Source: Escherichia coli
GTDB lineage: Bacteria; Pseudomonadota; Gammaproteobacteria; Enterobacterales; Enterobacteriaceae
Length of the DNA: 64,000 nucleotides
Assembly (NCBI RefSeq): GCF_009931435.1
Contig: NZ_CP043414.1
Direction: 5' to 3' (one strand)
Below the pieces are notes generated by a model. The model was given only the letters and a program-made list of their open reading frames with translations, was not told the DNA's origin and ran no database searches. The translations under genes and the position numbers were made by a program. This document shows positions 4,183 to 7,273 of this stretch, in pieces. Numbering within the stretch: position 1 is the stretch's first letter; each line of letters begins with the position of its first letter.

Positions 4183-5583
4183 ATGAGCGTTGTGCCTGTA
4201 GCCGACGTACTCCAGGGCCGCGTAGCCGTTGACAGCGAAGTCACCGTGCGCGGATGGGTACGTACCCGCCGAGATTCAAAAGCTGGCATCTCCTTCCTCG
4301 CCGTTTATGACGGTTCCTGCTTTGATCCTGTACAGGCTGTCATCAATAATTCTCTGCCCAATTACAATGAAGACGTTCTGCGTCTGACCACCGGTTGCTC
4401 GGTCATTGTGACGGGTAAAGTCGTGGCGTCGCCAGGACAGGGGCAACAATTTGAAATTCAGGCCAGCAAGGTTGAAGTTGCTGGTTGGGTTGAAGATCCA
4501 GACACTTACCCGATGGCGGCAAAACGCCACAGCATTGAGTATCTGCGTGAAGTCGCTCACCTGCGTCCGCGCACAAACCTGATTGGTGCCGTCGCGCGCG
4601 TTCGCCATACGCTGGCGCAGGCGCTGCATCGCTTCTTTAACGAGCAGGGATTCTTCTGGGTTTCAACGCCACTGATTACTGCGTCTGATACCGAAGGGGC
4701 TGGCGAAATGTTCCGCGTTTCTACGCTGGATCTGGAAAACCTGCCGCGTAACGATCAGGGCAAAGTGGATTTCGACAAAGACTTCTTTGGTAAAGAGTCT
4801 TTCCTGACCGTATCTGGCCAGTTGAATGGCGAAACCTACGCTTGCGCATTGTCCAAAATTTATACCTTCGGCCCGACTTTCCGTGCTGAAAACTCCAACA
4901 CCAGCCGTCACCTGGCGGAATTCTGGATGCTGGAGCCGGAAGTGGCGTTTGCTAACCTGAACGATATCGCGGGTCTGGCTGAAGCCATGCTGAAATATGT
5001 CTTCAAAGCGGTTCTCGAAGAACGCGCTGACGACATGAAATTCTTCGCTGAACGCGTAGATAAAGATGCCGTTTCACGTCTGGAACGCTTTATTGAGGCC
5101 GATTTCGCGCAGGTGGATTACACCGACGCAGTGACCATTCTCGAAAACTGCGGCAGGAAGTTTGAAAACCCGGTTTACTGGGGCGTCGATCTCTCTTCTG
5201 AGCATGAGCGTTATCTGGCAGAAGAACACTTTAAAGCACCGGTAGTGGTTAAAAACTATCCGAAAGATATTAAAGCGTTCTATATGCGCCTTAACGAAGA
5301 CGGTAAAACCGTTGCGGCTATGGATGTTCTGGCTCCGGGCATCGGTGAAATCATTGGTGGTTCTCAGCGTGAAGAGCGTCTGGACGTGCTGGACGAGCGT
5401 ATGCTGGAAATGGGCCTGAATAAAGAAGATTACTGGTGGTATCGCGATCTGCGTCGCTACGGTACTGTTCCGCATTCCGGTTTCGGTCTTGGTTTTGAAC
5501 GCCTGATTGCTTACGTAACTGGCGTGCAAAACGTGCGTGATGTGATTCCGTTCCCACGTACTCCGCGTAACGCCAGCTTCTAA
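4183..5583 (+). CDS. asnS: Asparagine--tRNA ligase
   Basis: ORF 4138..5583; start at ATG 4183 giving [25 protein letters not shown]..., 466 aa; class II aaRS with anticodon-binding N-terminal domain. Confidence 0.96.
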
Positions 5584-5596
5584 TTTAGCGTCTTCA

Positions 5597-5624
5597 AGAG
5601 CCAGCACCCGCTGGCTCTTTTTTT
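5597..5624 (+). terminator. Rho-independent terminator downstream of asnS
   Basis: Hairpin AGAGCCAGC-accc-GCTGGCTCT followed by a T7 run immediately after the asnS stop. Confidence 0.75.
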
Positions 5625-5735
5625 ATCCTTTCTGTCAAGTTATCTGTTTGTTAAGTCAAGCAATCTATTTGCAACCCCGCCATAACGATCATCCTGTTAC
5701 GGAATATTACACTGCAACATTTGCGCACAAAAAAT

Positions 5736-5767
5736 AATCCGCATTCTTATTGCGGATTAGTTTTTTC
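5736..5767. terminator. Second terminator-like hairpin in the asnS-ompF intergenic region, possibly bidirectional
   Basis: AATCCGCA-ttcttat-TGCGGATT followed by AGTTTTTTCTT, and preceded by an A-rich run so it could also act on the opposite strand; lies about 150 bp beyond the primary asnS terminator. Confidence 0.4.
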
Positions 5768-5974
5768 TTAGCTGATAGCACAATTTTCATACTATTTTTT
5801 GGCGTTCTGGATGTCTGAACGAGGATTTAATGCCAGGTCGATAAAGTTTCCATCAGAAACAAAATTTCCTTTTAGTTAATTTAAATATAAGGAAATCATA
5901 TAAATAGATAAAAATTGCTGTAAATATCATCACGCTTCTATGGAAATATGACGGTGTTCACAAAGTTCCTTAAA

Positions 5975-6040
5975 TTTTACTTTTAGTTACATATTTTTTC
6001 TTTTTGAAACCAAATCTTTATCTTTGTAGCACTTTCACGG
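5975..6040 (+). promoter_or_regulatory. ompF promoter-proximal OmpR-binding region (F1-F3 sites)
   Basis: AT-rich block TTTACTTTTAGTTACATATTTTTTCTTTTTGAAACCAAATCTTTATCTTTGTAGCACTTTCACGG resembles the tandem OmpR boxes known upstream of ompF; a -10-like AAAGAT lies near 6065, consistent with a leader of roughly 110 nt. Confidence 0.55.
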
Positions 6041-6184
6041 TAGCGAAACGTTAGTTTGAATGGAAAGATGCCTGCAGACACATAAAGACACCAAACTCTC
6101 ATCAATAGTTCCGTAAATTTTTTTTGACAGAACTTATTGACGGCAGTGGCAGGTGTCATAAAAAAACCATGAGGGTAATAAATA

Positions 6185-7273
6185 ATGATGAAGCGCAATA
6201 TTCTGGCAGTGATCGTCCCTGCTCTGTTAGTAGCAGGTACTGCAAACGCTGCAGAAATTTATAACAAAGATGGCAACAAAGTAGATCTGTACGGTAAAGC
6301 TGTCGGTCTGCATTATTTCTCCAAGGGTAACGGTGAAAACAGTTACGGTGGCAATGGCGACATGACCTATGCCCGTCTTGGTTTTAAAGGGGAAACTCAA
6401 ATCAATTCCGATCTGACCGGTTATGGTCAGTGGGAATATAACTTCCAGGGTAACAACTCTGAAGGCACTGACGCTCAAACTGGTAACAAAACCCGTCTGG
6501 CATTCGCGGGTCTTAAATACGCTGACGTTGGTTCTTTCGATTACGGCCGTAACTACGGTGTGGTTTATGATGCACTGGGTTACACCGATATGCTGCCAGA
6601 ATTTGGTGGTGATACTGCATACAGCGATGACTTCTTCGTTGGTCGTGTTGGCGGCGTTGCTACCTATCGTAACTCCAACTTCTTTGGTCTGGTTGATGGC
6701 CTGAACTTCGCTGTTCAGTACCTGGGTAAAAACGAGCGTGACACTGCACGCCGCTCTAACGGCGACGGTGTTGGCGGTTCTATCAGCTACGAATACGAAG
6801 GCTTTGGTATCGTTGGTGCTTATGGCGCCGCTGACCGTACCAACCTGCAAGAAGCTCAACCTCTTGGCAACGGTAAAAAAGCTGAACAGTGGGCTACTGG
6901 TCTGAAGTATGACGCGAACAACATCTACCTGGCAGCGAACTACGGTGAAACCCGTAACGCTACGCCGATCACTAATAAATTTACAAACATCAGCGGCTTC
7001 GCCAACAAAACGCAAGATGTTCTGTTAGTTGCGCAATACCAGTTCGATTTCGGTCTGCGTCCGTCCATCGCTTACACCAAATCTAAAGCGAAAGACGTAG
7101 AAGGTATCGGTGATGTTGATCTGGTGAACTACTTTGAAGTGGGCGCAACCTACTACTTCAACAAAAACATGTCCACCTATGTTGACTACATCATCAACCA
7201 GATCGATTCTGACAACAAACTGGGCGTAGGTTCAGACGACACCGTTGCTGTGGGTATCGTTTACCAGTTCTAA
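6185..7273 (+). CDS. ompF: Outer membrane porin F
   Basis: 362-aa [41 protein letters not shown]... with signal peptide, aromatic-rich beta-barrel pattern and terminal F; matches OmpF. Confidence 0.97.

Follow-up and report, generated by a model that had tools for sequence, protein, structure and literature searches.

A strain-variable, terminator-shaped hairpin in the spacer between asnS and ompF of Escherichia coli

The window analysed here is a stretch of 64,000 nucleotides of Escherichia coli DNA (RefSeq assembly GCF_009931435.1, contig NZ_CP043414.1), which carries pncB, asnS (4183-5583), ompF (6185-7273) and aspC, all on the + strand. The gene names were taken from the matching stretch of the K-12 genome, where RefSeq annotates aspC, ompF and asnS. 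The spacer between asnS and ompF is 96.8% identical to that of K-12 MG1655 and was found in 5,424 of 5,426 complete E. coli genomes, and no feature is annotated in it in the K-12 RefSeq record or under the spacer in the complete E. coli genomes. Window positions (x) were converted by alignment to K-12, the NC_000913.3 position being 993168 - x.

Downstream of asnS lies its canonical intrinsic terminator (5596-5624 on the + strand; stem 5596-5619, T-run to 5624), which folds at -17.8 kcal/mol. The initial annotation of this DNA had pointed out a second hairpin beyond it, with a 7-nt loop, a following TTTTTT and a preceding A-tract, about 440 bp upstream of the ompF start codon. This description proved accurate, and the stem even gains one further pair: the core stem, AATCCGCA (5736-5743) and TGCGGATT (5751-5758), encloses the loop TTCTTAT (5744-5750) and extends to an inverted repeat at 5735-5759, composed of TAATCCGCA (5735-5743), the seven loop nucleotides and TGCGGATTA (5751-5759). 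A run of six T follows one G after the stem (5761-5766) and would represent the U-tract of a + strand RNA, and a run of six A precedes the stem (5729-5734), which reads as six T on the - strand and would serve an RNA of that strand in the same way. The hairpin is separated from the ompF ATG (6185) by 449 bp, and the element corresponds to positions -341 to -310 from the ompF transcription start at 6076, as mapped by SMRT-Cappable-seq. In K-12, the hairpin occupies 987,409-987,433, with the T and A runs extending to 987,402 and 987,439.

As judged from its anatomy, the hairpin of this strain resembles an intrinsic terminator in its stem (9 bp with 4 G-C pairs, loop of 7 nt) as well as in its U-rich tracts, GUUUUUUC for a + strand RNA and UUUUUUG for one of the - strand. 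The folding calculation that had been proposed as a check indicates a stable structure in either orientation: a 51-nt RNA reaches -14.6 kcal/mol (z -4.2) when read from the + strand and -15.1 kcal/mol (z -4.8) from the - strand, energies matched by none of 200 dinucleotide shuffles. A consensus terminator scan calls the hairpin on both strands, and the 64-kb window contains a single occurrence of the exact stem pattern, compared to 0.07 expected by chance. Perfect 9-bp hairpins with a T-rich tail are present at eight places in the window, and those placed among them are this hairpin and the ends of the asnS, ompF and aspC genes. The shuffles, the two-strand terminator calls and the rarity of the pattern in the window together indicate that the hairpin is real and no chance match. 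The stem-loop alone has an energy of -11.6 kcal/mol, compared to -11.0 for the stem of the ompF terminator and -17.2 for that of the asnS terminator. Membership in a known RNA family was rejected after a permissive Rfam scan of 5400-6400, which yielded only STnc240 and the Thr and Trp leaders at 18-22 bits against gathering thresholds of 41-55. The same applies to a repeat origin (REP/BIME, MITE or IS end), as the hairpin is single-copy in the window and its 50-mer has a median of one place per E. coli genome. The hairpin sequence was not found printed in the literature searched.

The hairpin had also been placed near the expected distal OmpR site of ompF, and an OmpR-like sequence of the GTTAC type, GTTACGGAATATTACACTGCAACATTT, is indeed found at 5696-5722 on the + strand (-380 to -354 from the ompF start), its GTTAC core being conserved across genera. 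We take the published position of site F4 to be about -380 to -350, which is the basis for naming this sequence, and by its motif and distance 5696-5722 is probably F4. The position of F4 is said to have been established by Huang et al. 1994 and Rampersaud et al. 1994, and the site reportedly acts with IHF-assisted looping in distal ompF repression. A repressive role of F4 is also on record (PMC1489923). A crude OmpR matrix composed from six sites gave no score in the surrounding conserved region, and missed F4 as well. This region emerges from a per-column identity profile of 13 genera as a distal island of 130 bp (5691-5820), which starts with the F4-like sequence and has the hairpin in the middle. 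Within the island, the mean identity to sequences of 12 other genera is 0.38-0.71 per 10 nt and at least 0.53 in 12 of the 13 bins, the lowest bin (0.38) being at 5791-5800, compared to 0.20-0.49 in the flanking sequence; the hairpin region ranks highest, with 0.65-0.71. Conserved blocks are also seen downstream of the hairpin (ATAGCACA at 5776-5783 and GGCnTTCTGGATGTCTGAA at 5801-5819), for which no regulator could be named, and another one at 5881-5910 reaches an identity of 0.73-0.84, in keeping with the IHF site expected near -180. To our knowledge, the published F4 footprints do not reach -341 to -310, and no factor has been assigned to the block containing the hairpin.

A view on the corresponding spacers of other genera was obtained by scanning for AsnS in one genome per species, which yielded 80 loci. 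In twelve genera of the Enterobacteriaceae, the spacer measures 550-800 bp (mostly about 600 bp) and aligns over its distal part. For Erwinia, Pantoea, Pectobacterium, Brenneria, Serratia, Yersinia and relatives of these genera (loci L013-L022, L034 and L071), a comparison with window 5625-5950 shows that the match to the spacer is confined to its ompF-proximal part, the spacers themselves being shorter by about 300 bp. As far as these alignments go, the distal spacer, including F4 and the island, appears to be specific to the Enterobacteriaceae in the strict sense. The blocks conserved among the aligned genera are CACAAAAAAT, to which the A6 run belongs, TCTTATTGCG, TTAG, TTTCT and ATAGCAC, and the conserved positions are roughly symmetric, following the pattern TAAnCnnCA-N7-TGnnGnTTA. 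The block, but not its pairing, is found in E. albertii and in six further genera: E. albertii carries AACCCACA as left arm and TAATTT in place of the T-run, Citrobacter has the arms AATCAGCA and TGTGGATT with a T-run of CATTTT, and the T-runs of other genera contain about four T. A search for intermediate Escherichia clades, in which the E. albertii spacer was compared with the E. coli collection, found none, all matches being about 85% identical. Relative to E. albertii and the other genera, every change in E. coli (A to G in the stem, TAATTT to TTTTTT) brings the element closer to a terminator in shape. As an observation apart from the hairpin, the locus of Superficieibacter electus (L024, 3899-4100) carries about 190 extra bases right after asnS, which contain an additional hairpin, GCCAGCTTCGGCTGGC, and are absent in other genera; this insert is G+C-rich, contains palindromes and may be REP-like.

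The covariation that would be expected of a conserved stem was sought on both strands and was not detected. In 14 distinct sequences, the fraction of pairs formed is 77.8% for the + strand, where double changes are absent, and 82.5% for the - strand, where there is a single one; neither fraction exceeds the values for shuffled partners, and RNAalifold did not predict the hairpin stem from the cross-genus alignment. The asnS terminator, used as positive control in a similar set of 13 genomes, retains all 9 pairs, 4 of them compensated, with a consensus energy of -17.3 kcal/mol. The loop of the hairpin shows at least 90% conservation in 5 of its 7 columns; that of the asnS terminator varies in length and sequence. 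A conserved loop next to unconserved pairing suggests that it is the DNA sequence which is under constraint, and not a helix in RNA: selection has preserved the loop, right arm and adjoining blocks (CACAAAAAAT, TTCTTATTGCG, TTAG and ATAGCAC) in their primary sequence, and not the pairing.

The same picture is found within E. coli. The region was read in eleven further genomes, nine of them with an intact hairpin region, and alleles were counted as exact 50-mers across 5,424 genomes. Three positions of the left arm (5735-5743) are polymorphic, and every sequence read has the same loop, right arm and T-run. A perfect stem with AATCCGCA is present in about 34% of the genomes, either in the type of this window (447 genomes) or, on a different flank, in the K-12 type (1407 genomes). 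The most frequent other left arm is AACCCGCA (2008 genomes, including O157, O111, O26 and others), followed by AATCTGCA (1035 genomes; carried, for example, by SK1144), AACCTGGA (253 genomes; for example ATCC 8739) and rarer types such as AACCTGAA (about 270 genomes, by subtraction). Alleles abolishing the stem (AACCTGGA and similar ones) account for about 5% of the genomes, and no compensating change in the right arm was seen in the E. coli sequences read. Folding of the 43-nt core yields -14 to -20 kcal/mol for a perfect stem, that of K-12 being energetically even better than that of this window. The corresponding values on the + and - strands are -9.3 and -13.1 for AACCCGCA, -11.8 and -7.5 for AATCTGCA, and about -3 and -2 kcal/mol for AACCTGGA. 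On the - strand, G-U wobble keeps the arms paired in AACCCGCA (-13 kcal/mol) and in the E. albertii arm AACCCACA (-11 kcal/mol). SNPs of the spacer (window 5584-6184) are already in use as markers to trace E. coli to the host it came from (PMC5007776, PMC11267920), and the cluster of left-arm polymorphisms at 5738-5742 falls within the respective amplicon.

K-12 carries the perfect stem, and the available 3'-end data for this strain were obtained in laboratory media. SMRT-Cappable-seq assigns ompF to 987092-985838 and asnS to 989038-987544, with no variant ending at the hairpin (PMC6131387). In TRS, asnS ends at 987540-987543 with an efficiency of 0.985-1.0 and ompF at 985836-8, one end on the opposite strand is listed at 987572, and no 3' end is listed at 98739x-98744x on either strand (PMC10687069). 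The K-12 asnS ends at 987541-987544 correspond to window 5624-5627. The curated Term-seq list, which also misses the asnS terminator and is therefore of limited sensitivity on that strand, shows nothing in 9871xx-9875xx on either strand, and does contain 987644(+) and 987050(-) (PMC7815308). The published maps of K-12 thus record the flanking asnS and ompF ends and no end at the hairpin on either strand, nor does the hairpin mark the end of a transcription unit, as the asnS RNA stops 112 nt upstream. The proposal of the initial annotation that the hairpin is a second or bidirectional terminator consequently finds no support from mapped ends or covariation, and its suggestion of the 3' end of a short transcript fares no better, as no ends map there on either strand. 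Both outcomes that the initial annotation had named as refuting it, missing 3' ends on the two strands and a stem without covariation, were obtained with the data covered here.

The starts on the opposite strand were converted from U00096.2 to NC_000913.3 with an offset of +777 between the two genome versions, which agrees with the listed start adjoining the ompF start. Those considered are the Cappable-seq starts on the strand opposite ompF, given in U00096.2 coordinates (PMC4782308). A strong one with a score of 74.5 is located at window 5697 (986694(+) in U00096.2), already beyond the hairpin, and those upstream of the hairpin (6046, 6018 and 5766) are all weak, with scores of 2.0-2.7 near the detection limit. 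From the efficiency of the asnS terminator and the weakness of these starts, it follows that little transcription reaches the hairpin from either side; given this low input, it may still be used as a terminator at a low level. A further opposite-strand start was noted at 6077, at a distance of one base from that of ompF and with a score of 22.9. The promoter required would fall within the ompF 5' UTR, and the signal is probably a strand artefact of a very abundant mRNA, although a true back-to-back start may exist there.

The start at 5697 belongs to an unannotated transcription unit on the - strand just beyond the hairpin (5596-5709). Its -10 element TAATAT (5709-5704) lies inside the F4-like site and the A6 run is located at about -32 to -37 of this promoter, and OmpR bound to F4 would be expected to block it. 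The 3' ends on this strand are found at 5596 (TRS 987572(+)), where the asnS terminator hairpin, read in reverse, has its foot, and at 5524 (Term-seq 987644(+)), antisense to the 3' end of asnS. The RNA spanning 5709-5524 may be identical to C0240, an array-detected transcript of the opposite strand which Stead et al. place between ompF and asnS and describe as a putative small ORF (PMC3082872). An ORF on the - strand (window 5851-5735) has 39 codons in K-12 (METLSTWHKIFF...NAD), with its stop codon inside the hairpin. It is broken in five of ten E. coli sequences read, codon 9 being a stop in the window as well as in four of the eight other non-K-12 E. coli loci, and its start is missing in E. 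albertii. It was rejected as a gene, being polymorphic with premature stops and supported by no transcript start or end. In strain CFT073, a hypothetical protein of 61 amino acids is annotated in or beside the spacer (PMC1489923).

The T-run has also been the target of a mobile element. An IS200C copy is inserted after 5766 in strain GF60 (L092) and another after 5769 in isolate 366_BP0076 (L091), where ompF is missing and the right end of the IS abuts the T-run of the ompF terminator (window 7332). The two insertion positions differ by 3 nt, indicating independent events. In all six other IS200C copies sampled (L093-L098), the left end of the IS abuts a hairpin and T-run of terminator form, which in three of them follows the end of a co-directional gene (plaP, emrB and yfeX). 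These data suggest that IS200C targets terminator-shaped DNA.

Taken together, the element rather probably represents a young, strain-variable inverted repeat in conserved distal control DNA of ompF, which starts with the OmpR site F4. A few substitutions in the unconstrained left arm and T-run would have occurred in the E. coli lineage and completed by chance a 9-bp stem between the A and T runs, leaving about one third of the strains, including this one and K-12, with a sequence shaped like a two-way terminator. The conserved block itself would act as DNA, either as a protein contact or as an architectural part of the F4/IHF repression region. Any role at the RNA level would be marginal, at most stopping rare transcripts of the opposite strand or those polymerases, 1.5% or fewer, that escape the asnS terminator, and we infer that the terminator shape is incidental. 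The third suggestion of the initial annotation, a structural element of the ompF upstream loop, is therefore retained for conserved DNA, the hairpin being at the centre of the 130-bp island, and not for a proven structure. Several findings count against an origin as by-product: the hairpin greatly exceeds chance expectation, and flanking runs at both of its ends are not what an accident usually leaves; G-U wobble on the - strand keeps the two commonest non-perfect states paired (AACCCGCA and AACCCACA); and the 3'-end evidence is negative only and confined to K-12 in laboratory media. The E. coli changes improving the terminator could likewise reflect directional selection, contrary to a by-product.

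These points would be accommodated by a terminator that functions, as back-up or in both directions, in those E. coli lineages whose stem is intact, and that insulates the ompF control region against read-through from asnS and the promoter at 5697 against opposite-strand transcripts. Such an insulator has the full terminator anatomy on both strands and a stem close in energy to the ompF one, changes in the E. coli lineage improved stem and T-run alike, and the hairpin sits at -38 to -62 of the strong opposite-strand start, a typical terminator-then-promoter layout. Moreover, it was used twice by IS200C, which otherwise follows hairpins of terminator form in six of six sampled copies. We nevertheless regard it as unlikely, because a perfect stem is found in only about 34% of the genomes and none at all in about 5%, without compensation, and because TRS, SMRT-Cappable-seq and Term-seq contain no K-12 end at the hairpin. 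In addition, little transcription arrives there, given 98.5-100% efficiency of the asnS terminator and scores of 2.0-2.7 for the opposite-strand starts, and the loop is more strongly conserved than the stem.

It appears very improbable that the hairpin terminates the small opposite-strand transcript or ORF C0240. An array transcript is indeed reported for this strand between ompF and asnS (PMC3082872), the stop codon of the 39-codon K-12 ORF is located in the hairpin, and a promoter-like site (TTTACA-18-TATGAT, 5924-5895) is directed at it. However, no Cappable-seq start is found near this predicted promoter, the strong start at 5697 lies beyond the hairpin, and the opposite-strand ends map to 5596 and 5524 and not to the hairpin, in addition to the interruption of the ORF at codon 9 in this window and four of eight other non-K-12 loci and the missing start in E. 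albertii. Only slightly less improbable is a putative operator of a dimeric DNA-binding protein in the distal ompF control region, which would account for the roughly symmetric conserved positions, for arms conserved without covariation, as for a protein-binding palindrome, and for the location in a conserved regulatory island beside the F4-like sequence. The arms of E. coli are asymmetric, however, the left one varying at three positions and the right one at none, the best conserved part is the 7-bp centre, which is unusual for a spacer, and no other copy of the sequence occurs in E. coli genomes. We know of no regulator motif that matches the inverted repeat.

Returning to the young inverted repeat in conserved control DNA, it is conceivable, though doubtful, that the island following F4 (5723-5820), with the inverted repeat and its invariant centre TTCTTATTGCGGATTAG in the middle, constitutes an uncharacterised candidate protein-binding or architectural module of distal ompF control, shared by genera of the Enterobacteriaceae, which is turning in E. 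coli into a strain-polymorphic two-way terminator and landing site of IS200C. If so, ompF, whose promoter ranks among those best studied in bacteria, would gain an extra component, the regulation of ompF and the tendency to lose the porin could vary between natural alleles, and an IS200C hotspot able to remove a major porin would be explained. The loss of a major porin is relevant to antibiotic susceptibility. At a more general level, evolution can leave a persuasive terminator-like hairpin as a by-product, and polymorphism within the species together with an adjacent positive control can settle the question of a terminator quickly.

In comparison with known systems, the hairpin is close to intrinsic terminators, such as those of asnS and ompF, by its 9-bp stem, 4 G-C pairs, 7-nt loop and six T, and its stem energy of -11.6 kcal/mol is like that of the ompF terminator. 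Unlike in the asnS terminator, its pairing is neither conserved nor compensated and no 3' ends map to it, and it is located 112 nt past a terminator that already stops at least 98.5% of the asnS transcripts. Bidirectional terminators consisting of an A-run, a hairpin and a T-run are said to have been described genome-wide by Ju et al. 2019 (SEnd-seq). The hairpin shares their symmetric A6-hairpin-T6 layout, which predicts termination on both strands. Such elements typically sit between convergent genes, whereas the neighbours of the hairpin are co-directional and its site belongs to a promoter-distal regulatory region. With the distal ompF repression region, it shares the location, 13 bp downstream of the F4-like sequence and within the same conserved island, which is not found in Erwinia, Pectobacterium, Serratia and Yersinia. 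With the targets of the IS200/IS605 family, it shares the DNA form of the IS200C landing sites, a similarity that has no bearing on termination by RNA polymerase. The hairpin is known in kind and, as a terminator, unsupported and unconserved, and the conserved island and the targeting by IS200C are the minor leads that it offers.
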